Below are positions 10,622 to 29,544 of a stretch of DNA of 32,000 bases, in pieces (the first letter of the stretch is position 1; every line of letters begins with the position of its first letter). The notes below the pieces were generated by a model, which was not told the DNA's origin, ran no database searches, and saw nothing but the letters and a program-made list of their open reading frames with translations. The stretch covers positions 270,001-302,000 of the forward strand of contig OZ245819.1 in the NCBI GenBank assembly GCA_965228485.1, written 5' to 3'. The stretch is from Candidatus Saccharimonadota bacterium (lineage in GTDB: Bacteria > Patescibacteriota > Gracilibacteria > UBA4473). The position numbers and the translations under genes are program-made.

Positions 10622-11281
10622 TCAATCCTTTTTTAAAATTCTATGCATAAAAAATTCTTGCCAAAAAACATCTGCTTTTTGATTTTCTTCTAAATCCGAA
10701 AGTTCATATTCGGGGTGAGACTGTATACCATAAATTCCAGAGTCAAACTTAACCAAGTAAGGCATTCCCTCTGGTCCCCTTCCTAAAATTTCAACTTCAT
10801 CACTATGAAATGCTTCGATACAGTTTTCATGATAAGCACGAGTTGGTATTACCTCCCCATTCTCTAAAGTCATGGCTACTTCTTTATTTTTAAAATTACA
10901 ACTTCCGATCTGCCCCCCCATAACATCAGCTAGCACCTGCATCCCAAAACAAACCCCTACAATTGGAGTATTATTTTGTTGCGCTAAATATAGATTCAAA
11001 GCAAATTTTAGGTTTATCACCCAATCATGTTCATCTGCTACCAAAAAAGGTGAGCCGCTAAGAAGTAAAAGATCATAGTTCTTATAATTGAGTCGCTCTG
11101 TTAAGTCCCTAAAGCTTTGTTTTTCAACTTCAAAAAACTCCCAAGAAGCTTTTAATCCCAAAAATCTATCCATAGAACAAATAGCCTGATGCGCAGACTT
11201 ACGGTGGGCAATAGGACAGCCAAATCCAGGGTATTTAAACCCATGTTTAGGGGCGTAGTTGGAGAGTACTAATACTTTCAT
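10622..11281 (-). CDS. Class I glutamine amidotransferase-like protein
   Basis: 219 aa. The nucleophile elbow is VGVCFGMQVLA (G-x-C-x-G) and the His/Glu pair sits in IQSHPEY, which together form the GATase1 triad pattern. Confidence 0.8.
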   Translation of the reverse strand: MKVLVLSNYAPKHGFKYPGFGCPIAHRKSAHQAICSMDRFLGLKASWEFFEVEKQSFRDLTERLNYKNYDLLLLSGSPFLVADEHDWVINLKFALNLYLAQQNNTPIVGVCFGMQVLADVMGGQIGSCNFKNKEVAMTLENGEVIPTRAYHENCIEAFHSDEVEILGRGPEGMPYLVKFDSGIYGIQSHPEYELSDLEENQKADVFWQEFFMHRILKKD

Positions 11282-15600: not shown

Positions 15601-18060
15601 GTCAGTTGTTATTCCTGGGATTTCTTTTTCAATTTCCTGAGACAATTCTTCATGACCTCCTACTCTTAAAGTCTCTAATATTTTTGCATTCTGTTCTCCT
15701 TCTTTTTTTAAATATTTCTCCCTTTTTTCTACATATTTTTTCTGTTCTTCGGCGTTCCAAGCCTGAATATCTTGGTCATAAATTTTATTGTGTACTCTAT
15801 CGTAACTCGAGACAAAACTACTCAGTATTTTTGCTTCATTTGGAGTCCCAAGGCCCATCCCGAGAACCGCACTCACTTGCTGTAATGTCTCTTTTTCTCT
15901 CACTTCAGCCGGATCAATCTGTCGAACTTTTTCAAAAATTTCATGACGAAAAGACTCAATCACTCCATACACCACTTCACTTAGAGCTAACTCAGAATCA
16001 GATAAAACCCCCCTTAGGGCTCTTATATCTGCTGGAGATTTTGCGTAAACATTTCTTAAACTCAAACCTTCATCAAAAGCTTGTTGCCAATTTTCAAAAC
16101 TAGATTTTCCATCAATAATGGCATCCAGTTCATCTAATACTGGTTCTAAAACGGTGCTTTTTAGGCCTTCTCTGAATGTTTTAATTTTTTGTAGTAACTG
16201 GGCTTCCCTTCCTTCGAATATTTTTTCTTCATTAGTATTATCTTCCTCAACAAGCAAAGTATAAATATCTGCACTGGTTAATCTTTTTTGTTTCACTCTT
16301 TCGGCCAAATCTTCTCGGTAAGACTGATACATCTCCGAAGCTTTTGTTGGAGCTTTGTAAATAAATTCAGCTAGTTCCACATGTGATCGTGCTTCAGACT
16401 CATTATTCTGAAGCTTCGGTATTAACTTCGCTATTTCCCCCTCTACTTCATCTTGCTTCGCCTTAAGCTCTCCTATTGGATTTGTTTTAAGTTCTGCAAT
16501 TTCAGCTAAAACGTTCTGTGCTTGAGTCCCACGAGCCTCTCTAGCTTGTTTTTGATCAGGAGTTTCTCCTTGTGGAACTTGATTGGATTCCAATAAGACA
16601 TCGGTTAAAGGCGCTTCAATCTCCTCGTATAATGTCTCGAGAAATTCACCTCGAACATCTCCAAAAGAAGGATCTTCTTCAATAACAATATTACTTTTAA
16701 GATTATTCCATTTCGAAGCCAATTCAGCATTTTCTGAAAGTAATTTCGAAAAATGCTGTTTTGCCCCAAACGCTTCGACTGTTTTCTTAAGAGCTTCAAC
16801 AAGTTTTTTATCATTAATACTTTCTCTAAGCTTTCGAACCTTCTCGCTCATAGAAACTGATTCAGGGTTTTTGTCATCTCCTTCCTGCATCATTACATCA
16901 CCATTTTCGGCTTCCCATTGTCCCAAAAATTCATCTAACAAGTCTCCTTTCTGAGGTTTTGAAGCAATAGCTTGTAATTCAGATAACTCATCGGCTGAAA
17001 GTCGCTGACCTTCTCTTTGTTTTTGCTCTAAATCCAATAGTCTCGCTTCTTCTTGTTTTGTCCTACCTGAATCCACCCCAACTCCCAGTAACTGTTGGTA
17101 GTTGTCTTGATTTTGTGATTTAATAATCCGAAGAGCGGTAATATGTTCTGGTAGTAGAACTTTTTTACCATCTGCCCACTTTAGAAACTCAGCCGCTTGA
17201 GTTTGCTCTACCAGAGCCTCAATTTTAGGTTTCACCGACTGAAGGTCATAATCAGGATTATCAACAAGGCATTCCAATAATTCCCAGGCTCGAAGATATT
17301 CAATTCGGTTTTTAAACGTTGCTTCTCCAGTAAGTTCATTTTTAATTTCTGAAACCACCGCCTGACCAAAATTAGCAAATTTACCTGTTTCTGAGTCCGT
17401 TTCAAAATGGACATCTCCACCAAAAACTCTTTGGGCCTCGAGAACAAATAGCTTATCTCTTAACTGAAATTTTTTGTTTGGATCTTTACAGACTAAATGT
17501 CCAGCCTCATTCACTCGATAACCAGACAAAATATCTCTCGTCTTATCCAAAAGCTTCGCTCTCACAGAGGCTCGTAAGTCAGCATCAATATCTTTGTTGT
17601 TCCACACAGAACGATAAAACCGAAGCATCGATTGTAAGTTTGCAAAAGATATTTGCTCTACGCCTTCTACTTTTTCTGAGATTTTTTTTAACTCATCCTG
17701 TTCTTTTGATATTCCCATATCTACCCTTCGTCTCAAATCTGGGCTGATAAATTTCCAAAGCTTAGAAAACTTTAGATTGAAAAGCACCCTGTTTGGGAAA
17801 GTTCTATCTCTTTTCTCCATCACAAGACTTAAGTGAAATTCTACCAAGTCATTTAATTTTCTTTTTTGTTCAGCGGTTAAAGAATCTTTTACTGACTCCA
17901 GTTTCTTAAGCCCTGCTAATGATAGGTTATGAGGGCTCTTGAGTATTTGTTCAATTTGAGCCTCTATCCCCTGCTCGCCTTCGGTTCTTTCTTCACGATT
18001 ATTAAAACACCAGTTTTTCTGGTCTGTGAAGGTGTTAGAAGACGAAAATAAATATTTCAT
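12637..18060 (-). CDS. Giant hypothetical protein (1807 aa), predominantly helical and E/K/Q-rich, with no signal peptide or TM segment
   Basis: A single uninterrupted 5.4-kb ORF. I recognise no catalytic or nucleotide-binding motif. The last 600 aa or so are Trp/Phe-rich and less repetitive, for example WNDPEFWKVLMKF and RRWFFLIMGMAATNPQGK. Confidence 0.85.
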   Translation of the reverse strand: MKYLFSSSNTFTDQKNWCFNNREERTEGEQGIEAQIEQILKSPHNLSLAGLKKLESVKDSLTAEQKRKLNDLVEFHLSLVMEKRDRTFPNRVLFNLKFSKLWKFISPDLRRRVDMGISKEQDELKKISEKVEGVEQISFANLQSMLRFYRSVWNNKDIDADLRASVRAKLLDKTRDILSGYRVNEAGHLVCKDPNKKFQLRDKLFVLEAQRVFGGDVHFETDSETGKFANFGQAVVSEIKNELTGEATFKNRIEYLRAWELLECLVDNPDYDLQSVKPKIEALVEQTQAAEFLKWADGKKVLLPEHITALRIIKSQNQDNYQQLLGVGVDSGRTKQEEARLLDLEQKQREGQRLSADELSELQAIASKPQKGDLLDEFLGQWEAENGDVMMQEGDDKNPESVSMSEKVRKLRESINDKKLVEALKKTVEAFGAKQHFSKLLSENAELASKWNNLKSNIVIEEDPSFGDVRGEFLETLYEEIEAPLTDVLLESNQVPQGETPDQKQAREARGTQAQNVLAEIAELKTNPIGELKAKQDEVEGEIAKLIPKLQNNESEARSHVELAEFIYKAPTKASEMYQSYREDLAERVKQKRLTSADIYTLLVEEDNTNEEKIFEGREAQLLQKIKTFREGLKSTVLEPVLDELDAIIDGKSSFENWQQAFDEGLSLRNVYAKSPADIRALRGVLSDSELALSEVVYGVIESFRHEIFEKVRQIDPAEVREKETLQQVSAVLGMGLGTPNEAKILSSFVSSYDRVHNKIYDQDIQAWNAEEQKKYVEKREKYLKKEGEQNAKILETLRVGGHEELSQEIEKEIPGITTDQINTLINRYASREEQIALIKGNGKVLDSIDASLLSSFTEDQKLQAEKNIAEKILRYYAGIEAKGVVSSKSFDVFEGSENQIGLKSLNQIGLEVMPIVNEVKLLNKHLNDRTLAIASRLNNGDKLDFSQLNRLYFSDVENSIFPRLKLIRSELESTLLALFPEFTESFTKKYLARFDETYKALETNFIALRDNYKQKLEYSDKFNPTGDDFEYILKLFRGVESSLDLNSGEWVPVQKDSFDSLDQITSTYEFMADELGLFEEGGKDKAEKHYSEIQQEYKAIFEEYLEKSRAYLGKTKNDLEKMPAEKFRQVYGVEKSDIKKDIEEVELDIETFEPFYQKMLASPFAFQEWFKRYEKPETQSEAVDDMRKMFVVKDGVGEHLKKDTESFKKFLSDYKDYDKNRKGWDKPWRYLPRIYVKQWYSLLDIGRMIKQHVENLERLRQRREEEAVAFLGTKIFGNSAYGQEFQRKQREAEEQRVSEDEKREENKDFYNWREVLYKTKNKDQARAMINLLVNNGYMRWNDPEFWKVLMKFQKKVVFDLENDLNLPIGDQINKVGLACSEIWTTAIWNNWNGSLEGNLKKQMESNEKDFQNMRQNPARIMSTLGGMLESWMSGDDTVDPAAYEHFMFKLFDDARFNGPQDRRWFFLIMGMAATNPQGKTLISQEMMTRFNSGLLARIPFFDFFSDGGWKKDGKIVPPNTPGAEQRTWNYQDIQNWKAFLMQGLSGPIESNESKIRENSDRFFFEYIMSSDMAVTRASRMASVGDKEGDHDDAWMQFCGISYIEMAKLVNTRSEGRDIAKSQDQLAQLFQGLEPYVKGRYKYILEYDKMYGSTPEWQRMRKKALIEIGERIRVAFGGISSLSGNYKMQKNQTPSYLDKARYWEGDTGDVASNKKEIGDMVRTLVGQAGLSPDAYQHTTSSGETVDVFQSNLVVSVSENFAQVEQTEEYKFLNKTIDSMVSGDIGEKIFKDPSSIEQFLRNRYSGGL

Positions 18061-18084
18061 TTCTGACGTAAAAATAGTCTGAAT

Positions 18085-18093
18085 ATTATAACA
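18085..18093 (-). promoter_or_regulatory. Extended -10 element TGTTATAAT upstream of the 1807-aa gene
   Basis: The minus strand reads AAAATGTTATAATATTC, placing TATAAT 24 nt upstream of ATG 18060. The element lies downstream of the 18147-18179 terminator, so the giant gene appears to have its own promoter. Confidence 0.5.
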
Positions 18094-18146
18094 TTTTTAT
18101 TCGTCAAACACGACTAAATACTCTTTACAAAAATGTATTAATATGT

Positions 18147-18179
18147 TGTAAAAAAACAGCCTTATAAAAGGCTGTTTTT
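18147..18179 (-). terminator. Rho-independent, bidirectional-looking terminator after the 648-aa gene
   Basis: An 8-bp stem pairs ACAGCCTT (18154-18161) with AAGGCTGT (18166-18173) around a 4-nt loop. A 7-nt A-run sits on one side and a T-run on the other, giving a U-tract in either orientation. Confidence 0.75.
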
Positions 18180-18204
18180 TATCTTTAAGATCAAGGTTCA
18201 ATAA

Positions 18205-20151
18205 CTAAGAAGGTTTTCTAACGATCTTAATAGTACCATCCTCTTGTGTTTCAATTGTGAAGGTAGTTTCCGACTCAATCCTAGTTCTAATTTCTCTTAA
18301 TTTATCTCCAGACAAGTCTCCAAAGTCTTTTTCAGATGTTACTCCAAAATCTGCTGGATTTATAACCTGTCCCTCTGTGAGGCCTGTTGCTATGGCCCCT
18401 GCAAGTTTGCTTTCATCGAAAGTAACTGTTGTAGGTCCACTTCTATCTGGATCAGGAGTCCCACTCGTATCTGCTGCGAATATTTTAGCAGCATTAGCAG
18501 CATTCCCGAGATCTCCAGCACTAGAAATCCCCAGTGCAGTTCTATCTCCTTCGGATAAATGACTAAATACTTGTGTCTGAAGTTGTGTATTACTGGCTAG
18601 AATAGACTGTGTAACACCATTGGCTGCTAAGATAGACTTAATTTCTTGAAGCGTAGCTCGATTTCTTCCAAATTGAGTAGCCAATTTATTTCTCGCTTTA
18701 TCAGCTTTAGCTGTATCTTGTGCTCCTCCCGTGAAGGATTCCCTTAAGCCAGTTGGCCCACTATCGGACCTCATTCTATTTCTTGCACTAGCCATACCTT
18801 GATTGATATTTCCAACGTTAGCTAGTGTTCCCATTCCAGGAATTTTAATCTGATCTGCCCCCCAAGTCATAGCCGTTTTAGCCATCCCAGATCCGAAGTT
18901 CTGGATTCCTTGAACCACTCCTTGTACGTCTTCGATATCTTTAAGTGCTAGGAATACAGCTTTCCAGAAGAGAACGACAATAAATATTTTCCAAACAAAC
19001 TGCCATCCTTTGAATTTCTCATCTCCCCAGAAAGGTTTTAATGGTGCCCCTGGTTCAATATATTCTGTATAGAATTGAGGGGCTGGCACCACCGCATCTA
19101 AAGTTGCAATCAACACAAAGGTAAAGGCAAATACAGCCGCTACTTTCATCGGTACAATCAAATAATTCCAGAAACGTCCATTAATCTGTTGGAACGCATC
19201 TCCACTCCACCCCAGTACCCAACCGGTAACCAGAATCGGAGATAAGAGTATCATTACCCACATCATTACCACTCGGACAATAAGTACCACGAAGACGGCC
19301 ACAAGGGCCAATATATAGGCCACTGCCATAACGAAAGAGAAAAGAGCATTGTCTAAGACAGCCCAAATACTTTTGGAATTCGCCGCTAAAATTGGAAGCG
19401 ACTCAAGTCTCATAAAATGAACTCCAAAAGCCAGAATAATATTTTTCTTTTCTGGATCTTGTAGTTGATCTACTTCGATTTTATCTTTTACCTTGAAGAG
19501 ACAATAATCCTTATTTGGATCCTTACTTTTACAAAAGGTATCATTAATAATATCCCTTACTGGCGTACATGGTTTACCCGCACTTTGATCTTTACAAACA
19601 GTGTATTTCTTCGTATCAACTTTTAGATCCATCATCTCTTGGACATCCTTTGTTCCCTTTGCATCAATAGCCGTATCGGCAATAGTCAAGAGACCAATCG
19701 TTCCAACGTAAGTAGCATCTACCAGAACTTTCACTGCTAGAAGTGAAAAATTCACGGCTACTAGCCCAAGAATAATCTTCCCAAGCTTCGCTTTAATTGA
19801 CCAGTTTGAAGATTCTCCTGAAGTCAGAAGATTAATCATGATTACCGCCAAAAGAACAATCACAAAGACCATGTTCATGATATTTCGAATAAACATCCAC
19901 ATTGGTTTTAATGCGGCAATAATATCTGGGCCTGTAATCAAATCAGTCCCCCATAAAGGTGGCATGAATTGTAGCAAAATCAATGTTGCCGCCGTTAGAA
20001 TATGAACTAACGCGGACATTGTTTGAGCAAAATTCTCTAGAGCCGGAGATCGTGCTGCATTCGTTGCAAAAGCCATTTCCGGCATAAAAAATGTTGCTAC
20101 TAGAAAGGCAAAGGCCACAAGTGGAAGTGATTTTGTAAAAAATCGTTTCAT
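18205..20151 (-). CDS. Polytopic membrane protein with signal peptide, a Cys-containing external loop and a long soluble C-terminal tail; VirB6/TrbL-like by topology only
   Basis: 648 aa with signal peptide MKRFFTKSLPLVAFAFLVATFFMPEMAFA. There are at least six long hydrophobic helices. A 4-Cys loop reads VCKDQSAGKPCTPVRDIINDTFCKSKDPNKDYC. The C-terminal tail of about 230 aa is hydrophilic. The functional label is inferred from architecture and from linkage to a VirB4-like gene. Confidence 0.45.
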   Translation of the reverse strand: MKRFFTKSLPLVAFAFLVATFFMPEMAFATNAARSPALENFAQTMSALVHILTAATLILLQFMPPLWGTDLITGPDIIAALKPMWMFIRNIMNMVFVIVLLAVIMINLLTSGESSNWSIKAKLGKIILGLVAVNFSLLAVKVLVDATYVGTIGLLTIADTAIDAKGTKDVQEMMDLKVDTKKYTVCKDQSAGKPCTPVRDIINDTFCKSKDPNKDYCLFKVKDKIEVDQLQDPEKKNIILAFGVHFMRLESLPILAANSKSIWAVLDNALFSFVMAVAYILALVAVFVVLIVRVVMMWVMILLSPILVTGWVLGWSGDAFQQINGRFWNYLIVPMKVAAVFAFTFVLIATLDAVVPAPQFYTEYIEPGAPLKPFWGDEKFKGWQFVWKIFIVVLFWKAVFLALKDIEDVQGVVQGIQNFGSGMAKTAMTWGADQIKIPGMGTLANVGNINQGMASARNRMRSDSGPTGLRESFTGGAQDTAKADKARNKLATQFGRNRATLQEIKSILAANGVTQSILASNTQLQTQVFSHLSEGDRTALGISSAGDLGNAANAAKIFAADTSGTPDPDRSGPTTVTFDESKLAGAIATGLTEGQVINPADFGVTSEKDFGDLSGDKLREIRTRIESETTFTIETQEDGTIKIVRKPS

Positions 20152-20175
20152 GAATTAATTCGAATAAATCCCTCC

Positions 20176-20184
20176 ATTATACCA
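20176..20184 (-). promoter_or_regulatory. Extended -10 element TGGTATAAT upstream of the 648-aa gene
   Basis: The minus strand reads TTTTCTGGTATAATGGAGGG, about 25 nt upstream of ATG 20151. Confidence 0.4.
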
Positions 20185-20251
20185 GAAAATCACTAAAAAA
20201 ACAACGATAAAATATTAATTTAGTCGCTATAAAATCTCCTTAAATACGAAA

Positions 20252-22459
20252 TTAAGTGGTCACACTAAATCTATCGGCTGGTAAAACTCTAAAATTCCCT
20301 GTATTTCCAACATCAAACTCAAATCTATCATCTCTAAATCGAATTTTTAAAGTCGTTGATTCCCCTCCTGGCGTGTCTTCTGTAGCATTTCTGATAGTTA
20401 ATCCACGAGAAAGCTCGCTTGTAATTTTCCTATAAGGATAAGTAGCTCCAGCACCAATAATTCTTTGAATTCTATCAAAAAAGCTCCCAGTCCGTTCAAA
20501 ATTATAGCTTTTCCCATCTAAGTTAATTTTTATTTTTCCTTTATTCCCGACTTTAGAGGCAAATTCTCGGAGCTTTCTAAACTCGTAGAAAATTTTATGA
20601 AAGCTATCAACATTATTAATGATATTTGAATCAATACCAGAGGCTCTAAGTCCCTGTAAAAAAGAATTTCTAAGCGTTAATCTAGATTTTTGATTCGTAA
20701 CATCGTTGGCAAAAGCCCTGAAATTATCGTTCCCCTGAATTGAAATTCCTGCCCCAATAATAGCCGCTTTAAGAGCTTCGTTAGGCATGATTACTCCATA
20801 CTTCACTAATTCATCGTAAGTTGATTCGGCATCTTTCTTAATAGCACTATCAATATCACGATAAGGTTTTTTTCCTGAAAATAGGGTCTTCAGATTTTCA
20901 TCATCACGATTTTTCATCATATCACCTGGAGTGGTCTCTGTTTTATCTCTATTCGGAAATAACGCCCCTTTAACCATATTAAACTCTAAATCTAACATGC
21001 TCATAAACGCCCAAACCGCCACAATCGATCCTGAAAAACCAAGATCTCCAATAACCTCAAATACGTCATTATAGCTAAATTCTCCTCGAAGCTGCCCCCC
21101 TAAACGTTGATTTAGCTTCGCAAAACGAGGATCGTTTTTTACGTCCACTAATTGTGCCTGGCTAATATCTTGTGGATGGAAAGCCTGGTTGAGGTCCTCT
21201 ATAGAATTTAATTGTCCAGATTTAATCTTTTGTTTTGCCAGCTCCAGCTGATTGGCAAGATTCGGCATCACTTGTTTTTGACTGTCAGGCGCTAATTCTA
21301 GATTACTAGACTTACGAATCATTGATACATACATCCCTATAAGATATTTTTGTTTTTCTTCTGTACTCAGGGTTCCTCCACGGAAACGTTTCACCATTAT
21401 GGCAAAAGATTCTTGTGGATCCACTAAGTTCTCCGTTTGTGCCATAAACTCCGCTGCAGCATTAACTTGATCTTGTGTTGGAGCTGGCGCGTTTTGTCCA
21501 GCTCTAATAGCGAATAGATAATCAATAATCGGACGAATTGCCGCTGGTGCATATCGACTTTCTTGTTTCAAGAGCTCCATAGTTTGATTTGCCATATTTC
21601 GCATTTCTGGATTCAACTTTTGAAACGCCTCAGGATCAAAAGGATAGGCCATAAATTTTGGCATCAAATTAATGTACTCTGAAAAGAGGTTGCTCAAAGC
21701 TTCCGTGTTTCCTTGAAAACCATAATCAATCCCTTTCACTAGCCCTATAGCGGTTGCCGCATTAAATCCTAATACTGATCCAATTCCTCTTCCTGCAACT
21801 CCCACGGTTTCATGTAAAGCTTTTGTGGCATTTGGACTTTGGAGCGCAAAACCAGTTAAAGCTCCCGCCATAATCATTCCTTTACCAAAACCACTTGTAT
21901 CTTTACCAGCATTAAAACCCCACCAAAGAAGTCCTGCTCCCACCGCTGTAGAACCAATAGTAGAAGTAACGTTTAGGTTTGCTAAATCTGCGGGGATATT
22001 AGCCAACTTTCCTCCAATAGAATCTATTCGAGCGCTGGCCATTGTCGCTACATCCGCCCACTGAGAATCGGTCATATGAATATTCTGAGCCGCCAATTTA
22101 GCTCGAACATTTGCCTCTACCTGAGCTTTCACCGAAGTTAAAACGGATGGATTACGTAGTACATAATCCACTCTTTGTTCTTGGGTTAAGTTATTCCATT
22201 TTGGTACAACTTTCGCTAATTCTTTTTCAAGTTCTTCACCAGAAATACTATGGATCATATCAATCTCTAATAACCCTCTTTCTAGAGAGGACTCCACCAG
22301 GGCCACTTCCTCTGCAGGTCTTCTAGCGGCTTCCCTTTGAGCCTCTAACTGAGCTCGAGACTCTTTGGCTTGAGCACGCAAAAGCGCCTCAGAGGGTGCT
22401 CCTCTTGTTATTCCAGGAATTTGATCCCCTCTTGCTAAATCCTGCTCAACTCGTCCCAT
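20252..22459 (-). CDS. Hypothetical 735-aa protein with an Arg/Ala-rich N-terminus and Gly-rich hydrophobic segments
   Basis: Long ORF whose start lies 12 nt after the stop of the upstream 170-aa gene. Residues about 165-250 (TSTIGSTAVGAGLLWWGFNAG...GMIMAGALTGFAL...VGVAGRGIGSVLGFNAATAIGLV) look membrane-inserting. I recognise no family. Confidence 0.7.
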   Translation of the reverse strand: MGRVEQDLARGDQIPGITRGAPSEALLRAQAKESRAQLEAQREAARRPAEEVALVESSLERGLLEIDMIHSISGEELEKELAKVVPKWNNLTQEQRVDYVLRNPSVLTSVKAQVEANVRAKLAAQNIHMTDSQWADVATMASARIDSIGGKLANIPADLANLNVTSTIGSTAVGAGLLWWGFNAGKDTSGFGKGMIMAGALTGFALQSPNATKALHETVGVAGRGIGSVLGFNAATAIGLVKGIDYGFQGNTEALSNLFSEYINLMPKFMAYPFDPEAFQKLNPEMRNMANQTMELLKQESRYAPAAIRPIIDYLFAIRAGQNAPAPTQDQVNAAAEFMAQTENLVDPQESFAIMVKRFRGGTLSTEEKQKYLIGMYVSMIRKSSNLELAPDSQKQVMPNLANQLELAKQKIKSGQLNSIEDLNQAFHPQDISQAQLVDVKNDPRFAKLNQRLGGQLRGEFSYNDVFEVIGDLGFSGSIVAVWAFMSMLDLEFNMVKGALFPNRDKTETTPGDMMKNRDDENLKTLFSGKKPYRDIDSAIKKDAESTYDELVKYGVIMPNEALKAAIIGAGISIQGNDNFRAFANDVTNQKSRLTLRNSFLQGLRASGIDSNIINNVDSFHKIFYEFRKLREFASKVGNKGKIKINLDGKSYNFERTGSFFDRIQRIIGAGATYPYRKITSELSRGLTIRNATEDTPGGESTTLKIRFRDDRFEFDVGNTGNFRVLPADRFSVTT

Positions 22460-22471
22460 GAAAGTGGTTAA

Positions 22472-22984
22472 TTACAATTTCAGAGCTCTAATCCATAGAT
22501 CGGTAAGAGCTTCTTTCTGTGAATTTTTTGGTAACTCTTCAATATTGGCTTTATCCAAAACTTTATGAATTTTACTATTAGAAATTTCTTCTAACTGTAA
22601 AATTACTCGATCTGATCGTTTCACAGAATATTCAAAAACCAATAGTCGAGCATGGATATCATCTAGAATCCAATACCCTCGAAATTTATCCCAAGGAAAA
22701 ATATTTCTTTTATCCAAAATGAGTGCATTTTCAAAAATTTCGATCTCGTGCTCTCTCTCTGCATCTCGATGAATCCAGAAATAAACGGCCGCTACAAAAC
22801 AAAAAGTAAAGGCGCTTACCCATCCCCATTCTTTATCCCACCAGAGGAAAAATATCGCACTTCCAAACATTACTCCACAAAACCCGATATGCCAGAGCAG
22901 ACCTCTTTCATGCGGGTGATAGTCTGGCGCACTCCAATTGATAAGTTTTTTTCCAAGCCGAATTTTTGGTTTTTCTTTACCCAT
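22472..22984 (-). CDS. Small membrane protein: two TM helices followed by a beta-rich (PH-like?) C-terminal domain
   Basis: 170 aa. After a basic N-terminus comes W-S-A-P-D-Y...LLWHIGFCGVMFGSAIFFLWW...WVSAFTFCFVAAVYFWI. The PH-like assignment is an inference from this architecture. Confidence 0.65.
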   Translation of the reverse strand: MGKEKPKIRLGKKLINWSAPDYHPHERGLLWHIGFCGVMFGSAIFFLWWDKEWGWVSAFTFCFVAAVYFWIHRDAEREHEIEIFENALILDKRNIFPWDKFRGYWILDDIHARLLVFEYSVKRSDRVILQLEEISNSKIHKVLDKANIEELPKNSQKEALTDLWIRALKL

Positions 22985-23044: not shown

Positions 23045-25669
23045 TTACTGATTTTTCCGAACAAAGATCTTTTGGATTTCGACAACAACCAAAGGAATCA
23101 CACAACTCAAAAGTACCACTCCCCAATCATGTAAATCTAGCGGTGTGGTTTTTAGTATATCATTAAGAAACGGAACGTAGATCATCAAAAGCGTCATCAA
23201 GATTGAGGTCATAACAGCCACAAGCATAAAGTGGTTTTTCAGTGGATTCATCTGAAACACTGATCGAGAGAACGATCGGGCAGAAAAAGCGTTTACTAAT
23301 TGAACCATAACCAGACAAACAAAAGCTACCGTCGTTGCGTGCGCAAACTCTTCATTTGTTGGCATTCCAAAGGCCCAACCATCATTAAATATGGTATAAA
23401 GGAAGGCAATCGTCATCACCACCCCAATAGAACATCCTGTAAATAAAAAGTTCAGCACAAAATGACGATTCATTACCTTTTGTTTCGTATCTCGAGGAGG
23501 CTGTTTCATAAGGTCTCTTGATGGATTATCGACCCCCAATGCAATAGCTGGCAAGATATCGGTTCCCAAATCAATACACAGGATAAGAATCGCCGTTAAT
23601 GGCAATGGGAAATTGAAAAGAATAGCTGCAAAAATTACAAATAACTCTGCAATATTACAAGAGAAGATAAACCACACGAACTTTCTTAGATTTTCATAAA
23701 TCCTTCTCCCCTCTTCCACCGCTGTAACAATAGAGGCAAAAGAGTCATTAAGTAATATCATTGTAGCGGCTTCTTTACTTACTTCCGTTCCGGTAATTCC
23801 CATAGCAACTCCAATATCAGCTTTTTTAAGGGCTGGTGCATCATTAACTCCATCCCCTGTCATCGCCACAATTTCACCTTGTTCTTGAAGAAGGCGAACA
23901 ATTCTCATTTTCTGTTCTGGCAGACTCCGAGCAAAGATCAAAGATCGGTCTCTGTCTGATAACATTCTCCTTAATTCCTCATCTTCAATATTTTTTACCT
24001 CACCTCCAGTAAGGACTTTTACGTTCTTTCCTCTTACAATACCTAGTTCTCGAGCAATCGCTTCTGCTGTGATTCCAAAATCTCCCGTAATTACTACTAC
24101 TCGTATCCCTGCGGTACGACATTTAGCAACCGCTCTTCTTACCTCACTACGAGGTGGATCGATCATTCCTACTAACCCTAAAAATACTAGATTTGATTCT
24201 GCTTCTTCAGCATTTTCGGGTAATTTCCCATCAATAGATCTTTCCGCAAAGGCCAAAACTCTCAAAGCATTCTCAGCCATTCGCTCATAATGGGCTTTGA
24301 TTTTGATTCGCTTAGCCTCTGTCATTTCTTGAACAGAAACTCCATCAGACCAATGTGTACACTGTTCTAGAACTTGGTCAGGAGAACCTTTGACCAATAC
24401 TTTCCCTTGAGAAACTACCGACATCATTTTTCGATCAGAATCGAATGGGAAAATATCATCTACCGTTGCTGGATGAATCCCACTTTTTTCAAGGTCAACA
24501 ATTTTGTCCTTATAATAAAGAGTCAAAAGCGCTCCTTCTGTCGGATCTCCAAGAATCTGAAAACGATTTTCTTTTTCAACAAGCTTCGCCTCATTACACC
24601 GATAACAAACATCTAGTAAAGCATTTTTGAGATCGGTGTTTTCTTTTGTATTTTTTTGTCCTCCCACATAATTAAGTTTTCCTGAGTGAGGTTCGTACCC
24701 TACTCCCGACACATGAAAGATAGAACGATCCGCTAAATAAATCTCACGAACCGTCATTTCATTCTTTGTCAAAGTTCCGGTCTTATCAGAACAAATTGTG
24801 GTTACCGCCCCAAGGGTTTCAACCGATGATAGTTTCTTGATGATCGCCTTTTTTCGAGCCAGTACCGTCGCCCCCAAAGCAAGCGCAATGGTAATGGTCG
24901 TTGGCAAACCTTCTGGGACCGCTGCAATAGCTACCGATACGGAAAAGAGCAAGCTCTGAACAATCGTATAATCTCTAAATAATCCCACTAAAAATAGGAA
25001 GACACAGATGACAATCGTTACTTTCGTTACAAAGACTCCAATACGCTGAAGTTCGATTTGAAGTGGAGATTTCACCTTTACCGTTTCTGTGGTTAGACGA
25101 GCAATCTCACCAAACTTGGTATCCATTCCTGTTTTTATCACCTCAAACATTCCTGATCCTCTCGCAATAGAAGTCCCCATAAATACCACATCTTCTGCTT
25201 TTTTCTCCAGAGGCAGGCTTTCTCCTGTTAGGGCCGATTCTTCGATCTTTAAAGAGTGGGCTTCAACTAGACGCCCGTCAGCTGGCACTTTATCCCCTTC
25301 TCCCAAGACAACAATATCTCCTGGGACAATCGATTCGGTCAAAATCATCTTTTCCTCTCCGTCTCGGAAAACCCGAATTTCTGGATGCACCATCTTTTTT
25401 AGCGCCTCCAATGTCTTCTCTGTTCTAAATTCCTGAAAAAATCCAATCCCCGCATTTAATAATACAATCCCAAAGATCACGTAACTATCAACTGGATCGT
25501 GACTTAAGAAATAGGACACAACAGCCGCTAATACCAAAATTACTACGAGCAAGTCGGTAAATTGTGAAAACAATATTTTATACCAAGGGTTTGATTTTTT
25601 GGCCTTAAGAAGGTTTTTACCAAACTCAGCCAACCTTTTTTCCGCTTCTTTTTGTGAAAGCCCTTTCAT
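23045..25669 (-). CDS. Cation-transporting P-type ATPase, P2 (Ca2+-ATPase-like) subfamily
   Basis: It has the phosphorylation motif ICSDKTGTLT, the TM4 motif AAVPEGLP and the hinge MTGDGVNDAPALKKADIGVAMG. I place the start at Met36 (ATG 25669-25667). MKGLSQKEAEKRLAEFGKNLL is the canonical N-terminus, and the longer 909-aa ORF would run across promoter-like sequence. Confidence 0.9.
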   Translation of the reverse strand: MKGLSQKEAEKRLAEFGKNLLKAKKSNPWYKILFSQFTDLLVVILVLAAVVSYFLSHDPVDSYVIFGIVLLNAGIGFFQEFRTEKTLEALKKMVHPEIRVFRDGEEKMILTESIVPGDIVVLGEGDKVPADGRLVEAHSLKIEESALTGESLPLEKKAEDVVFMGTSIARGSGMFEVIKTGMDTKFGEIARLTTETVKVKSPLQIELQRIGVFVTKVTIVICVFLFLVGLFRDYTIVQSLLFSVSVAIAAVPEGLPTTITIALALGATVLARKKAIIKKLSSVETLGAVTTICSDKTGTLTKNEMTVREIYLADRSIFHVSGVGYEPHSGKLNYVGGQKNTKENTDLKNALLDVCYRCNEAKLVEKENRFQILGDPTEGALLTLYYKDKIVDLEKSGIHPATVDDIFPFDSDRKMMSVVSQGKVLVKGSPDQVLEQCTHWSDGVSVQEMTEAKRIKIKAHYERMAENALRVLAFAERSIDGKLPENAEEAESNLVFLGLVGMIDPPRSEVRRAVAKCRTAGIRVVVITGDFGITAEAIARELGIVRGKNVKVLTGGEVKNIEDEELRRMLSDRDRSLIFARSLPEQKMRIVRLLQEQGEIVAMTGDGVNDAPALKKADIGVAMGITGTEVSKEAATMILLNDSFASIVTAVEEGRRIYENLRKFVWFIFSCNIAELFVIFAAILFNFPLPLTAILILCIDLGTDILPAIALGVDNPSRDLMKQPPRDTKQKVMNRHFVLNFLFTGCSIGVVMTIAFLYTIFNDGWAFGMPTNEEFAHATTVAFVCLVMVQLVNAFSARSFSRSVFQMNPLKNHFMLVAVMTSILMTLLMIYVPFLNDILKTTPLDLHDWGVVLLSCVIPLVVVEIQKIFVRKNQ

Positions 25670-25746
25670 ATTTATATTTATTTTAAGATTCAAAGCGCAT
25701 TCTAGCACAAAGATACAATCAAATTTAAAAAAATGTTTTAAAGTAG

Positions 25747-25775
25747 TTGAAAAAAGATTGAAAATCTGATACAAT
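25747..25775 (+). promoter_or_regulatory. Near-consensus sigma70-type promoter TTGAAA-17 nt-TACAAT facing the 568-bp intergenic region
   Basis: TTGAAA is at 25747-25752 and TACAAT at 25770-25775, with exactly 17 nt between them. The predicted transcription start is near 25781. Confidence 0.45.
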
Positions 25776-25780
25776 GCTCT

Positions 25781-25975
25781 GTTCTTTTTCAGAACGATTC
25801 CTTTTGGGAGGGATCTCGACTTAGCTCCGTTGGCACCTTTATGGACTATGCAACGAGTGTTGCTGAGTCGAGTTCTCTCCTGGCCTTCCTCTCTTCTATA
25901 AAGTTGTACTTTATAAAACTAGAGAGAAGACCCAGAACCAGTCTTGCTTCGGGTTTTACCTCTCGCCTACCCCCA
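25781..25975 (+). ncRNA. Candidate structured non-coding RNA or leader of unknown family
   Basis: Four consecutive hairpins start at the predicted transcription start.
- H0, 25781-25795: 5 bp.
- H1, 25807-25880: about 24 bp (18 bp in 25807-25825/25862-25880, then 6 bp in 25827-25832/25851-25857). The only disruptions are one U-U mismatch, a small internal loop and one bulged A. It contains two G-U pairs (25811-25876 and 25822-25865), which become A-C mismatches on the minus strand and so favour + strand transcription.
- H2, 25885-25929: 7+6+3 bp.
- H3, 25930-25954: 7 bp.
The region has no ORF. I could not match it to tmRNA, RNase P, SRP or a known riboswitch. Confidence 0.35.
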
Positions 25976-26072
25976 AAAAAACAAAAGATAAAAAACAAAT
26001 ATAAATAACAAAGAGCGTGTTATCCGCTCAAGAAAAATCGATAACAGGAAGGATTTAAAAAGGAGAAATTTT

Positions 26073-26129
26073 AAAAAAAACACTGCTCGCCCCTCTGATA
26101 TATCGGGAAAAATGAGCAGTGTTTTTTTT
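26073..26129 (+). terminator. Intrinsic terminator (bidirectional-looking) in the intergenic region upstream of the VirB4-like gene
   Basis: An 8-bp stem pairs CACTGCTC (26081-26088) with GAGCAGTG (26114-26121). An A8 run (26073-26080) and a T8 run (26122-26129) flank it. The 25-nt loop may carry an inner CCC/GGG stem and contains one GATATATC box. Confidence 0.55.
26097..26104. promoter_or_regulatory. Palindromic box GATATATC, copy 1, in C-rich context (CCCCTCT-GATATATC-GGG)
   Basis: Read directly from the sequence. A second copy lies exactly 60 bp downstream. Confidence 0.3.
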
Positions 26130-26156
26130 ACTTTTAGTCGGAATAGTTTCCCCCTA

Positions 26157-26164
26157 GATATATC
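26157..26164. promoter_or_regulatory. Palindromic box GATATATC, copy 2 (CCCCCTA-GATATATC-CCC)
   Basis: Read directly from the sequence; it lies 179 bp upstream of the VirB4-like ATG. Confidence 0.3.
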
Positions 26165-26304
26165 CCCTTAAATTTAGGAATAAAAAATTCTTAGTGAGCC
26201 CAAGAGATCCCAAAAAATTTTATAAAGACTTTGATATGATTTTAAGGACTCTTTTTAATAAAGACTCTAAAAAAACATTTATCAAAAAACTCAAATACTT
26301 CGCA

Positions 26305-26333
26305 TTGAAAAAAACCTCAATTTCAGCTATAAT
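26305..26333 (+). promoter_or_regulatory. Sigma70-type promoter TTGAAA-17 nt-TATAAT immediately upstream of the VirB4-like gene
   Basis: TTGAAA is at 26305-26310 and TATAAT at 26328-26333, with 17 nt between them. The ATG at 26343 is only 9 nt from the -10, so the mRNA would be leaderless or nearly so. The intervening GAAGGGA could instead serve as a ribosome-binding site for a longer transcript. Confidence 0.45.
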
Positions 26334-26342
26334 GAAGGGATT

Positions 26343-28712
26343 ATGTCGGAAAACCAAAACACACAAAACAACCAAAATAGCCAAGCCAGTCAAAATACTG
26401 GGGCTAATAGTGGAAATCAAAGCTTTGTAGATAAACAAGGAATTGTCAGTATTGAAGCACTTCAAGCAATGCAAAAACAGCAACGAGAAGTTGAAACTGA
26501 AGAAACTCCAACTGAGGAAGTAGCACCACAAAACATGCCTCCGAGTACGGAAGCACCAGTAGTGCAAACGCCCACTCCGACGCCTGCACCAACAGCAGCG
26601 CCAACACCACCTCAAACGGTTCCACCGACAACACCAGCCCCTACAGCACCGCCAAGCACGGAAGCGCCAGTAGTACAAACTCCCGCTCCAACGCCTGCGC
26701 CAACAGAAGCACCAAAATCAACTGCAGCTCCTAAACCAGAAACTAAAAACTCTGGTCTTCTTGGAGGCATGAAACAGAAATGGAATGCTCACGTAGAAAA
26801 GAACAAGACCAATGCGGAAAAACGAAAACAACAACAAGTTGAAGCTGCGGCAAAAAAAGTCGATCCTAAAAAGACTGAATCCGAACAATCTCAAGATGAG
26901 TTAGAACAACTTTTTGAAAACTATGATCCGAAAAAAGATCGAAAAAAACTAACTCCAGCCCTTCGAAAGAAAATTATCGAAGCCGAGAAGTTCTACAATG
27001 AAGGAGTTGTAAATATTAAAGACCTTATCGCTCCAAGCTCTCTTGAGGTTGGACCACGAAGCTTAAACGTAAATAGTCAGCATGTACGATCTTACTACGT
27101 GTTTAATTATCCACGTTATTTAGAAAGCAACTGGCTTAATCAAATTATCAATTTTGATGCGACTCTAGATATTTCACTCTTTGTTTATCCAACGGATTCG
27201 GCTCGAATGATGCGTACTTTGAGAAAGAAAGTAACCGAAATGCGAGCCACTCGAAGAATGAAATCTGAGAAAGGAATCACCAATGATGTATCGCTAGATA
27301 CGGCTCTAGAAGATGCCGAACAACTTCGAGTTGATCTTCAAAGAGGGAAAGAAAGATTCTTTCAAGTAGGGGTATACTTCACCGTTTACGCCGACTCACA
27401 AGAAAAACTCGATGTTATCTGCAAACAGGTAGAAACGATTCTTGGAGGACTCCTCGTGATGACTCGTCCAACAGAATTCCAAACCGAACGAGCGTTTAAT
27501 ACGACACTCCCACAATGTACCGATGATTTAGACATTCATAGAAATATGAACACGTCTCCCCTATCGACCACTTTCCCATTTGTTTCAAGTACACTGACTT
27601 CAAATGAAGGAATCTTGTACGGACTTAATCGACATAATAATTCATTGATTATCTTTGATCGATTTAAACTTGAGAATGCCAACTCGGTTATCTTTGCGAA
27701 ATCTGGGGCGGGTAAATCTTATGCCGTAAAACTAGAAGTACTCAGATCAATGATGATTGGAACCGATGTCATCATCCTTGATCCAGAAAAAGAATACGAA
27801 ACACTAACCCATACCATTGGGGGAACGTATGTAAATATTTCGCTGAACTCAAATCACCGAATTAACCCTTTCGACCTTCCACTGCCAATTGATGATGCGG
27901 ATGAAAACACCGCTTCCCTACTCCGGGAAAACATCATCAATATCTCTGGTCTTATGAACCTGATGCTTGGGAAATTGACGCCAGAAGAAAGTAGTCTTAT
28001 GGATAAGGCCCTTTATCAGTGTTATGAAATCAAAGGAATCACCGCTGAGGTAAAAAACCCTCACGAATACGAAATGCCAACGATGAAAGATCTGCAGAGT
28101 ATTCTTGAAAGTATGGAAGGGGGTAAAAGCCTCGCTATGCGTCTAGAAAAATATACCGAAGGAACTTTTGCGGGACTCTTTTCTCAACAGACCAATGTTG
28201 ATCTGAGTTCTGGACTTATCTGTTTTGGTATTCGAGACCTAGAAGATCAACTTCGACCCATTTCAATGTATATTCTTCTGAACTACATCTGGAACCGAGT
28301 TCGAAGCGAAATGAAACGACGAATGCTTGTGATTGATGAGGCCTGGAATGTCGTTCAATACGAAGACTCTGGACGATTCCTACACAATCTTTGTAAACGA
28401 GCGCGGAAATATTATCTTGGTATTTCAACGATTACCCAGGATGTGGAGGACTTCCTCAAATCGCCTTGGGGGAAACCGATTATTACTAATAGTTCGATGC
28501 AGTTGTTGCTCAAACAAGCCCCATCGGCCACGGAAATATTGCAAAACACCTTCAATCTCACCGAACAGGAAAAATACTTACTCCTCAATTCCAATGTGGG
28601 GCAAGGACTCTTCTTTGCGGGGAACCAGCATGTAGCGGTACAGATCATCGCGAGTTACGGAGAACACAAAATCGTAACGACGAATCCAGAGGAAATCCTA
28701 AAACAAGGATAA
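26343..28712 (+). CDS. VirB4/TrsE/TraC-family type IV secretion ATPase with a ~190-aa low-complexity N-terminal extension
   Basis: 789 aa. Walker A is KSGAGKS (nt 27699-27719) and Walker B is MLVIDEAW (nt 28323-28346). The segments ISTITQDVEDF and LLLKQAP follow. The overall layout is a non-ATPase N-domain followed by a C-terminal ATPase, as in VirB4-family proteins. The N-terminus is Q/N-rich, then Pro/Thr-rich, then K/E-rich. Confidence 0.8.
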   Translation: MSENQNTQNNQNSQASQNTGANSGNQSFVDKQGIVSIEALQAMQKQQREVETEETPTEEVAPQNMPPSTEAPVVQTPTPTPAPTAAPTPPQTVPPTTPAPTAPPSTEAPVVQTPAPTPAPTEAPKSTAAPKPETKNSGLLGGMKQKWNAHVEKNKTNAEKRKQQQVEAAAKKVDPKKTESEQSQDELEQLFENYDPKKDRKKLTPALRKKIIEAEKFYNEGVVNIKDLIAPSSLEVGPRSLNVNSQHVRSYYVFNYPRYLESNWLNQIINFDATLDISLFVYPTDSARMMRTLRKKVTEMRATRRMKSEKGITNDVSLDTALEDAEQLRVDLQRGKERFFQVGVYFTVYADSQEKLDVICKQVETILGGLLVMTRPTEFQTERAFNTTLPQCTDDLDIHRNMNTSPLSTTFPFVSSTLTSNEGILYGLNRHNNSLIIFDRFKLENANSVIFAKSGAGKSYAVKLEVLRSMMIGTDVIILDPEKEYETLTHTIGGTYVNISLNSNHRINPFDLPLPIDDADENTASLLRENIINISGLMNLMLGKLTPEESSLMDKALYQCYEIKGITAEVKNPHEYEMPTMKDLQSILESMEGGKSLAMRLEKYTEGTFAGLFSQQTNVDLSSGLICFGIRDLEDQLRPISMYILLNYIWNRVRSEMKRRMLVIDEAWNVVQYEDSGRFLHNLCKRARKYYLGISTITQDVEDFLKSPWGKPIITNSSMQLLLKQAPSATEILQNTFNLTEQEKYLLLNSNVGQGLFFAGNQHVAVQIIASYGEHKIVTTNPEEILKQG
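26538..26714 (+). repeat. Two copies of a 22-codon Pro/Thr-rich unit PPSTEAPVVQTP(T/A)PTPAPT(A/E)AP inside the VirB4-like gene, 111 nt apart
   Basis: Copy 1 is 26538-26603 and copy 2 is 26649-26714. A codon-by-codon comparison shows 9 synonymous and 2 non-synonymous differences. Confidence 0.85.
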
Positions 28713-29007: not shown

Positions 29008-29544
29008 ATGACCTCAATGACCTGGATCGCAATTATTTGGCTGATCGTTTTTATTCTGACCGTGATAACGCTGATTTCTTTTATCTGGGTTATTGCTCCG
29101 TACTTTCCTACGAGAAGTAAACACTTAGAGGCGATTAATAAAATTTGTGCTCTCAAGCCTGGTGAAATTTTCTACGAACTCGGTTGTGGAGATGCCCGAG
29201 TGAGTCGACATCTCGCCAAACACAATCCAGAAGCTCAGATTATCGCTCTAGAAATGGCGGTAATTCTTTTCCTTATTGCTAAGATTAAGAGTCTCCGATA
29301 TCCGAACCTCACGGTTAAATGGCAAAATATTTTTTGGGAAGACCTTAGTAAGGCTGATGGAGTCTATGTATTTGGAATGACCGACAGTCTAAACAAAAAA
29401 CTCCGAGCCAAATTCCTCGAAGAACTCAAGCCAAAGAGTCGAATCATCTCTTACGTCTTTTCTATGAAAGACTGGGAAGGTAAAAGCGAAGACTTTCCTC
29501 AACCAGGAGAAAAAACCGTGATCCACAGGTATACGATGAAGTAA
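29008..29544 (+). CDS. Class I SAM-dependent methyltransferase with an N-terminal TM anchor
   Basis: 178 aa. The N-terminal helix is WIAIIWLIVFILTVITLISFIWVIAPYF. SAM-binding motif I is FYELGCGDARVSRHLA, and an acidic residue follows beta-2 (IIALEM). Confidence 0.7.
   Translation: MTSMTWIAIIWLIVFILTVITLISFIWVIAPYFPTRSKHLEAINKICALKPGEIFYELGCGDARVSRHLAKHNPEAQIIALEMAVILFLIAKIKSLRYPNLTVKWQNIFWEDLSKADGVYVFGMTDSLNKKLRAKFLEELKPKSRIISYVFSMKDWEGKSEDFPQPGEKTVIHRYTMK

Follow-up and report, generated by a model that had tools for sequence, protein, structure and literature searches.

The closest described counterparts of the element reported here are large structured RNAs of bacteria. The raiA motif RNA (RF03072; see PMC10861870) of the Firmicutes and Actinobacteria is a large, highly structured RNA that in most cases precedes a particular gene. 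An initial suspicion that it was a leader gave way to its recognition as an RNA in its own right, and its biochemical function is still unknown. OLE, ROOL, and GOLLD (see PMC12286853) are orphan, lineage-restricted RNAs of several hundred nucleotides with many conserved helices and single strands. The OLE gene neighbours that of its partner protein, a precedent for inferring partnership from adjacency. Transcription-terminating riboswitches have another layout, in which a compact P1-closed domain is followed closely by a terminator and lies upstream of a gene in the same direction. 6S and Ms1 RNAs (see PMC9130861) are abundant stand-alone structured RNAs with a strong promoter, which are detected by synteny and structure. 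The element in question shares features with all of these. It lies in a 32,000-nt stretch of DNA from a Candidatus Saccharimonadota bacterium (assembly GCA_965228485.1, contig OZ245819.1, positions 270,001 to 302,000), hereafter called the window, in the gap between a P-type cation ATPase gene and a VirB4/TraC-like ATPase gene (virB4). This gap is likely to hold the separate gene of a structured non-coding RNA (~349 nt), which would represent a new family, act in trans, and probably be bound to protein.

The differences from the described systems are as follows. Compared with raiA, there is no match of sequence or structure in Rfam; the host belongs to the Patescibacteria group, the neighbour is virB4, and the architecture consists of a P1/P2/P3 three-way junction and a conserved terminator apex. 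Compared with OLE, ROOL, and GOLLD, the RNA is smaller (~350 nt, up to 605 nt), was not found on phages or plasmids, and is known from sequence alone, with no sign of oligomers or of a partner protein. Unlike in riboswitches, a promoter is located between the terminator and the gene, no antiterminator is seen, the most conserved block is the terminator apex, and the RNA is much larger than most aptamers. Unlike 6S and Ms1 RNAs, it is predicted to form a three-way junction with a large multiloop and unpaired ends, and it has no 6S-type match in Rfam. We rate it as a new family within a known kind, namely, the orphan large structured bacterial RNAs such as raiA and OLE.

Predicted fold and covariation of the RNA

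DNA around relatives of VirB4 was fetched and searched with nhmmer; L-numbers denote these loci. Twelve distinct copies of the RNA, including that of the window, were found, with lengths of 332-605 nt. The E-values of the syntenic homologues were 1e-51 to 1e-101. A first-pass annotation of the window, made from its letters only, had proposed a promoter-driven structured RNA here and had recommended a search of related genomes and a folding comparison with shuffled sequences. The former recovered syntenic homologues with covarying helices. In the latter, the region folded better than dinucleotide shuffles: the z-scores were -3.9 (+ strand) and -4.9 (- strand) for 25776-25960, and -6.0 (+ strand) and -5.4 (- strand) for 25781-26129. 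Both strands fold well; therefore, the folding energy shows unusual structure yet not the strand.

RNAalifold, applied to an unguided MAFFT alignment of 10 copies, gave 41 pairs, 23 of which have compensatory changes. The elements obtained are the base of P2, the GAGCG/CGCUC hairpin (P6), and the terminator stem with its inner CCC/GGG. In the P2 base, 89.9% of the cells are paired over the 12 copies and 9 of the 19 pairs change on both sides. None of 500 shuffles reached any of the measures, and controls in which the segments were slid were 31-56% paired. The long hairpin of the first-pass annotation, which corresponds to P2, is thus borne out. In a swap test, every 5' segment was paired with every 3' segment across the homologues, and 20000 permutations were made. 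For P1 (12 homologues), the energy was -13.4 kcal/mol with the own partner and -7.7 kcal/mol with non-own partners. The respective values were -39.9 and -25.2 kcal/mol for the whole P2, -14.7 and -8.1 kcal/mol for its distal part, and -12.4 and -3.6 kcal/mol for the outer stem of P7, and 0/20000 permutations reached the observed value in each of the four cases. Covariation supports the predicted helices P1, P2, P6, and P7.

Independent full-length minimum-free-energy (MFE) folds of each copy repeatedly show the same architecture, and the three-way junction is predicted in 11 of the 12 homologues. P1 joins the segment just 5' of P2 to a segment ~260 nt downstream, and its sequence differs strongly from lineage to lineage (Table 1). 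P3 is formed between the CU box (CCUUCCU) directly after P2 and AGGAAGG ~160 nt downstream. GGAAG is found in 10/12 homologues; it is replaced by GGAGU in L006 and is missing in L155. In 9/12, no downstream segment anywhere in the RNA pairs better with the CU box than the GGAAG box does, and L001 shows a compensatory change in P3 (UCUUCCU/AGGAAGA). These long-range helices tie the 5' hairpins to the segment that the first-pass annotation had called an A-rich spacer. For this reason the version of ~350 nt, running to the terminator, is preferred among the two stand-alone transcripts considered there, and promoter, body, and terminator are kept as a unit in the 12 homologues. The version of ~195 nt is excluded, since it would sever both P1 and P3. 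Far from being a spacer, the segment itself contains conserved blocks together with P6 and the strands that complete P3 and P1 on the 3' side.

Some of the local hairpins drawn by the first-pass annotation are changed in this fold. The first one (25781-25795) is not conserved among the homologues. Within the RNA, this 5' tail finds its best partner in (C)AAAGAG(C), immediately before P6, in 8/12 sequences. None of the three candidate partners of the tail (AAAGAG, the GA box, and the terminator's 3' strand) was consistent among the homologues. As for the third and fourth hairpins, the inner hairpin recurs as P4 with variable sequence, whereas the flanking CU- and GA-rich strands pair otherwise in the full-length folds. 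The GA-rich block is present in 12/12 homologues, mostly as GAGAGAAAG and as AGAGGU in L002, L020, and L031. It pairs with a downstream UUUCUC-type strand in most of the full-length folds and with upstream CUCUCU in the local fold. The A-rich block AAAAACAAAAAUAAAUACAAAG is kept in the 12 homologues with 1-nt indels. The outer pair of P6 is G-C in five copies, A-U in two, and G-U in two, and L155 reads GAGUG/CACUC in this hairpin. The most conserved block of the whole RNA is the P7 apex (CNC-CUCUG ... GNG-AAAAAU), in which CCC/GGG is changed to CAC/GUG in L006, L155, and L008. Pairing between the P7 loop and the GGAG box is suggestive in just 5/12 copies. The differences in length among the copies correspond to peripheral hairpins inserted around a constant set of blocks. 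Sequence is kept inside helices (the P2 base, P3, and the P7 apex) as well as in extended single strands, and the peripheral hairpins vary. These features suggest an RNA that acts in trans and is probably bound to protein.

The helices contain many G-U pairs, and one position of P2 is U-G in 10/12 copies, in line with the earlier remark that the G-U pairs of the long hairpin point to the + strand. A covariance model of P2 and the CU box scored 72-86 bits on the + strand versus 12-34 bits on the - strand. The G-U pairs, the covariance model, the promoter, and the U-tract all appear to favour the + strand.

Table 1. Coordinates of the RNA, its parts, its neighbours, and its homologues (positions in the window, or in the respective L-locus)
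Feature	Position	Strand	Sequence, basis, or remark
Promoter of the RNA gene	25747-25775	+	TTGAAA, 17-nt spacer, TG-extended TACAAT; consensus scan, 10/12 matches
Structured RNA, predicted transcript of ~349 nt	25781-26129	+	5' end inferred from -10 box, 3' end from U-tract
5' tail	25781-25798	+	conserved (C)UGUUCUUU; alignments
P1, 5' strand	25799-25805	+	UCCUUUU; pairs with 26058-26064; full-length MFE folds
P2, long hairpin	25806-25881	+	19-bp conserved base GGGAGGGAUCUCGACUUAG/CUGAGUCGAGUUCUCUCC and covarying distal part; RNAalifold
CU box, P3 5' strand	25884-25892	+	CCUUCCUCU; CUUCC in 12/12 homologues
P4, predicted hairpin of variable sequence	25897-25915	+	UAUAAAGU/ACUUUAUA; hairpin at same place in 9/12 (not L002, L020, L031)
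GA box and P5 region	25921-25964	+	AGAGAGAAGAC; small UUCG-loop hairpin and downstream CU-rich strand
Conserved A-rich single strand	25965-26012	+	...AAAAACAAAUAUAAAUAACAAA; unpaired in all folds
P6, small hairpin	26013-26029	+	GAGCG-loop-CGCUC; RNAalifold, 5 pairs
Joiner and P3 3' strand	26030-26052	+	AAGAAAAAUCGAUAAC, then AGGAAGG (26046-26052)
P1, 3' strand	26058-26064	+	AAAAGGA; overlaps conserved GGAG box 26062-26065
P7, intrinsic terminator with A-tract	26073-26129	+	stem-loop proper and U8, 26081-26129
P7 outer stem, 8 bp	26081-26088/26114-26121	+	CACUGCUC/GAGCAGUG; read directly from sequence
P7 apex	26090-26113	+	CCC-CUCUG...GGG-AAAAAU; conserved
Terminator U-tract	26122-26129	+	U8; U-tract in 12/12 homologues
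Separate promoter of virB4	26305-26333	+	TTGAAA-17-TATAAT; 11/12 consensus matches; 9 nt before ATG 26343
P-type cation ATPase gene	23045-25669	-	Pfam; upstream neighbour of the RNA, not conserved
VirB4/TraC-like ATPase gene	26343-28712	+	Pfam P-loop_TraG, AAA_10, DUF87; conserved downstream neighbour
RNA copy, L001	3513-3863		
RNA copy, L002	3576-3929		P1 CGUGGUGCU/AGGCAUCACG
RNA copy, L012	1897-2228		
RNA copy, L004	3488-3913		P1 GGCCUCC/GGAGGCC
RNA copy, L020	1803-2161		P1 CGUUGUGCC/GGCAUAACG
RNA copy, L031	2034-2383		
RNA copy, L032	1994-2415		
RNA copy, L030	1950-2294		
RNA copy, L006	3541-3928		P1 AUAACUUAAAG/CUUUAAGUUAU
RNA copy, L155	2014-2408		
RNA copy, L008	102-706		P1 GACCC..ACCCUG/CAGGGUGGGUC
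tRNA-Glu(UUC) gene, L034	2271-2345	either	
tRNA-Glu(UUC) gene, L007	3600-3674	either	
tRNA-Glu(UUC) gene, L158	1295-1369	either	

Proposed transcription unit and its position before virB4

The near-consensus promoter that the first-pass annotation had pointed into the gap is confirmed. It agrees with the sigma-70 type, in which the hexamers are 16-18 nt apart, and initiation is predicted there. The pattern TGnTAnnnT is kept in 12/12 homologues, 5-6 nt 5' of the conserved start sequence of the RNA. At the other end, the terminator located by the first-pass annotation is present and its stem covaries. P7 has the form of an intrinsic terminator, a G+C-rich stem-loop followed by a U-tract, with an 8-bp stem, the inner CCC/GGG, and U8. 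A simple terminator scan overlooked it on account of its 12-nt loop (the limit of the scan was 8 nt) and an internal bulge. In the homologues, the terminator stems are 8-14 bp long and are followed by 5-8 U, and these terminators look strong.

Past the terminator, a near-consensus -10 box, (TGn)TATAAT, is located 7-11 nt before the ATG of virB4 in 10 of the 11 homologues in which this gene was placed; L004 has only a weaker TAGAAT box. With the -10 box so close to the ATG, the mRNA of virB4 would have no leader or almost none. A read-through RNA with a long leader would have no obvious route to translation, because only ~2 of 22 genes have a Shine-Dalgarno motif.

A different explanation is that the RNA controls virB4 in cis, either as a riboswitch- or attenuator-like element with a terminator that a signal would open, which was the other possibility raised by the first-pass annotation, or as a strong upstream transcription unit, from which read-through would either block or supply the promoter of virB4. 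In every placed homologue, the RNA immediately precedes virB4 and is co-directional with it. Its P1-closed core and P7 are separated by 8-20 nt, a layout reminiscent of riboswitches. Furthermore, the U-tract of the terminator abuts the -35 region of virB4 in several homologues, and the ATG follows at a distance of 39-65 nt in 7/11. However, virB4 has the -10 box of its own described above, past the terminator, and a long leader seems ill-suited to a genome poor in Shine-Dalgarno motifs. No conserved antiterminator pairing was found: when transcripts are truncated ahead of the terminator's 3' strand, its 5' strand has no common upstream partner and is unpaired or weakly self-paired, and forcing it open costs 0-3.1 kcal/mol (the difference in folding free energy). 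The strong appearance of the terminators and the expression of virB4 without the RNA in close relatives also stand against control in cis. The reading as a riboswitch or leader is not supported, and control of virB4 in cis in any of these forms is unlikely.

For the stand-alone RNA gene, the following scheme is proposed. RNA polymerase would start at the strong sigma-70-type promoter at 25747-25775 and would stop at the terminator at 26081-26129, the apex of which would itself be a conserved part of the RNA; termination would be constitutive. P1 (25799-25805 with 26058-26064) would close the core, in which P2 and the long-range P3 would meet at the three-way junction. P3 would enclose the variable hairpins, the conserved A-rich single strand, and P6, and the P7 terminator hairpin would follow after a short A-rich linker past P1. 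The stable product would work in trans, probably as a protein-bound particle.

The scarcity of Shine-Dalgarno motifs is general in the window, where they are nearly missing (~2/22 long open reading frames (ORFs)). A near-consensus TATAAT is located 7-30 nt before many start codons (for example, at 26328-26342 and upstream of 18205-20151(-) and 22472-22984(-)), and several of these boxes are followed by a shared GGGAT(T/A) motif. The rarity of Shine-Dalgarno motifs and the position of the TATAAT boxes near the starts suggest that mRNAs of this genome are leaderless or have very short leaders.

Distribution of the RNA and other explanations

The assemblies that carry homologues of the RNA are labelled Gracilibacteria, Altimarinota, or "Peribacteria". 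All 12 copies are co-directional with virB4, and the RNA is directly upstream of this gene in 11/11 loci where it was placed; L008, where virB4 was not placed, has no start of a long ORF in the 900 nt past the terminator. The gene on the other side of the RNA varies, being an ATPase, a coenzyme A ligase, GlnA (glutamine synthetase), 7TM_transglut, or others. A neighbour-joining tree of VirB4 shows loci with the RNA across the whole clade. Other contents are observed at this site in some relatives. In five loci that form a monophyletic VirB4 subgroup (L034, L005, L157, L007, and L158), a tRNA-Glu(UUC) gene, in one orientation or the other, occupies the position of the RNA. In L159, a close relative with the same ATPase-virB4 arrangement as the window and nested among RNA-bearing relatives in the tree, there is merely a 100-nt spacer (1402-1501) and no RNA. 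In the more distant L160 (58% VirB4 identity), cas1, cas2, and a CRISPR array lie directly upstream of virB4 (1380-2400); the 35-nt repeat of this array is GGTTAAGCAGTCTTGAAAAAGTGGCAAATCAAAAC. No divergent copy was detected with nhmmer and/or the covariance model in the VirB4 loci L005, L007, L009, L033, L034, and L156-L160, and no second or divergent copy was detected with the covariance model of P2 and the CU box in any fetched locus. As RNA-bearing loci span the VirB4 clade while some relatives have other contents, the RNA is apparently old in the lineage and was lost from, or moved away from, the virB4 site several times.

Several points weigh against a stand-alone RNA gene with the fold described above. 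The RNA is missing at the virB4 site in several close relatives, in which it is either dispensable or relocated. P1 is weak in the window (7 bp) and in L001. P3 is nearly invariant and so shows little covariation, and L155 has no obvious 3' strand for it. For the CU- and GA-rich blocks, alternative pairings exist, and the comparison is made over 12 sequences only. In addition, where the RNA starts and ends and how abundant it is are all inferred from the DNA letters.

The fixed site before the virB4 promoter suggests either that the RNA is connected with the type IV secretion-like ATPase or just that the gene order is ancestral. The link between the RNA and the VirB4 machine is one of position. 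It is quite unlikely that the RNA is a dedicated partner of a type IV secretion-like machine, whether as an RNA subunit or regulator of the VirB4 complex or as a secreted cargo.

6S-type RNAs are hard to find by sequence. This elusiveness counts in favour of the possibility that the RNA is a highly diverged housekeeping RNA, of the 6S/Ms1 type or related to ribonuclease P (RNase P), transfer-messenger RNA (tmRNA), or signal recognition particle (SRP) RNA, beyond the reach of the Rfam models. Such RNAs typically show the traits seen here: a length of 350-600 nt, a strong promoter, a constant core to which peripheral insertions are added, and persistence in genomes as small as ~1.3 Mb. However, Rfam 15 (4227 models) gave zero matches at the gathering threshold in the whole 32-kb window, and only tRNAs, located elsewhere, in the 11 homologous loci, which agrees with the earlier failure to assign the region to a known family. 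Even in scans of three members with E-values up to 5-10 (window 25600-26400 and the RNA regions of L008 and L032), only noise of the terminator or hairpin type was obtained, far below the thresholds. ARAGORN found no tRNA or tmRNA in the window. The 5' and 3' ends of the RNA are unpaired in any fold and there is no tRNA-like domain, contrary to tmRNA, in which paired ends form such a domain and a tag reading frame is present. Neither the P4 core consensus of RNase P nor the domain IV motif of SRP RNA, with its GNRA-type tetraloop, was seen on reading the alignment, and in place of the 6S rod with a central bubble and paired ends, the three-way junction is predicted. The absence of the RNA from the same locus in close relatives would also be unusual for an essential RNA unless it had moved. 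A diverged housekeeping RNA is therefore considered very improbable.

The inverted repeats might act as DNA, as an origin of transfer, as hairpins like those of single-strand origins, or as part of the chromosomal replication origin. The element adjoins a VirB4-like gene, gene orientation flips from - to + at ~26 kb, the cumulative GC skew flattens at ~26-29 kb, and in one relative, L158, virB4 is two genes from dnaA (dnaA-recR-tRNA-Glu-virB4). However, no 9-mer similar to the DnaA box TTATCCACA (<=1 mismatch) occurs in 25670-26342, and TTATCC in the P6 loop is not conserved. The covarying helices spanning 160-260 nt and the many strand-specific G-U pairs fit RNA better than a DNA site bound by protein, and a conserved promoter and a U-tract terminator bracket the element exactly. 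The RNA has no match on plasmids or phages, the specific core pattern was blank in viral contigs, and a looser pattern gave at least 120 chance matches, 0 of which were confirmed by nhmmer. A Pfam scan of 20 ORFs of the window showed neither a relaxase nor a Rep domain. A function at the DNA level is thus extremely unlikely. Over the window as a whole, there are 17 DnaA-box-like 9-mers versus 9.2 expected; they are scattered, and none is in the gap. A replication origin may be located near virB4 in this lineage.

A small protein gene, including a 55-aa ORF at 25841-26008, was rejected, as there are stops in all six frames (tables 11 and 25), 1-2-nt indels in the conserved blocks, and compensatory changes in the helices. 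RsaE/RoxS-type small RNAs have a C/U-rich anti-Shine-Dalgarno seed. The present RNA has CU-rich conserved blocks, most of which are paired inside it, and a role as an anti-Shine-Dalgarno sponge is weakened by the near absence of such sites from the genome. The likeness of a terminator strand of L001 to the 3' end of 16S rRNA is in a variable stem and was judged to be chance.

Neighbouring genes and meaning for the lineage

The first-pass annotation had described the gap between the two ATPase genes as very long, and both of its lengths are confirmed: 568 bp when counted from the start of the longest ATPase ORF (TTG 25774) and 673 bp (25670-26342) with the start at ATG 25669. The shorter ORF is favoured because the N-terminal Pfam domain starts at residue 37 of the long ORF and because the orthologues are 879-884 aa in length. 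Homologues of the VirB4-like protein carry the source names VirB4/TraC, and the nearest VirB4 proteins are from assemblies labelled Candidatus Gracilibacteria, Candidatus Altimarinota, or 'Peribacteria'; Candidatus Altimarinota is a phylum within the Patescibacteria group. The gene for a TrmB-like methyltransferase follows virB4 (29008-29544), as it does in L030, L031, and L032.

To the left of the P-type ATPase gene, a secretion-related cluster is located on the - strand (12637-22984). It contains an ORF of 1807 aa, a TrbL/VirB6-like ORF of 648 aa, and two ORFs, of 735 and 170 aa, with no Pfam match. The rest of the window consists of ordinary chromosomal genes. Two of the 22 window ORFs end in TGA (1614-2297 and 10622-11281(-)), and no long ORF has an in-frame TGA. 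Related lineages have been reported to read UGA as Gly. In the window, genetic code tables 11 and 25 yield identical genes; therefore, the choice of the code is irrelevant to the finding of the RNA. The genome either avoids UGA or keeps it as a rare stop.

With 350-600 nt, four covarying helices, and long-range pairing, the strongly conserved RNA ranks among the few large orphan RNAs of bacteria, several of which proved to have unusual biochemistry. Members of the Patescibacteria group are host-dependent and have very small genomes; text searches of the literature gave no lineage-specific structured RNAs for them and no earlier description of a structured RNA next to virB4. The virB4 gene family has been reported to be essential for epibiotic growth in Saccharibacteria (10.1101/2025.01.22.634366). 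If the RNA is indeed a partner of the type IV secretion-like machine, it would be the first class of large structured RNA tied to secretion and epibiotic life in the Patescibacteria group. For the annotation of these genomes, it matters that what looks like a long leader with a terminator can be a separate gene.

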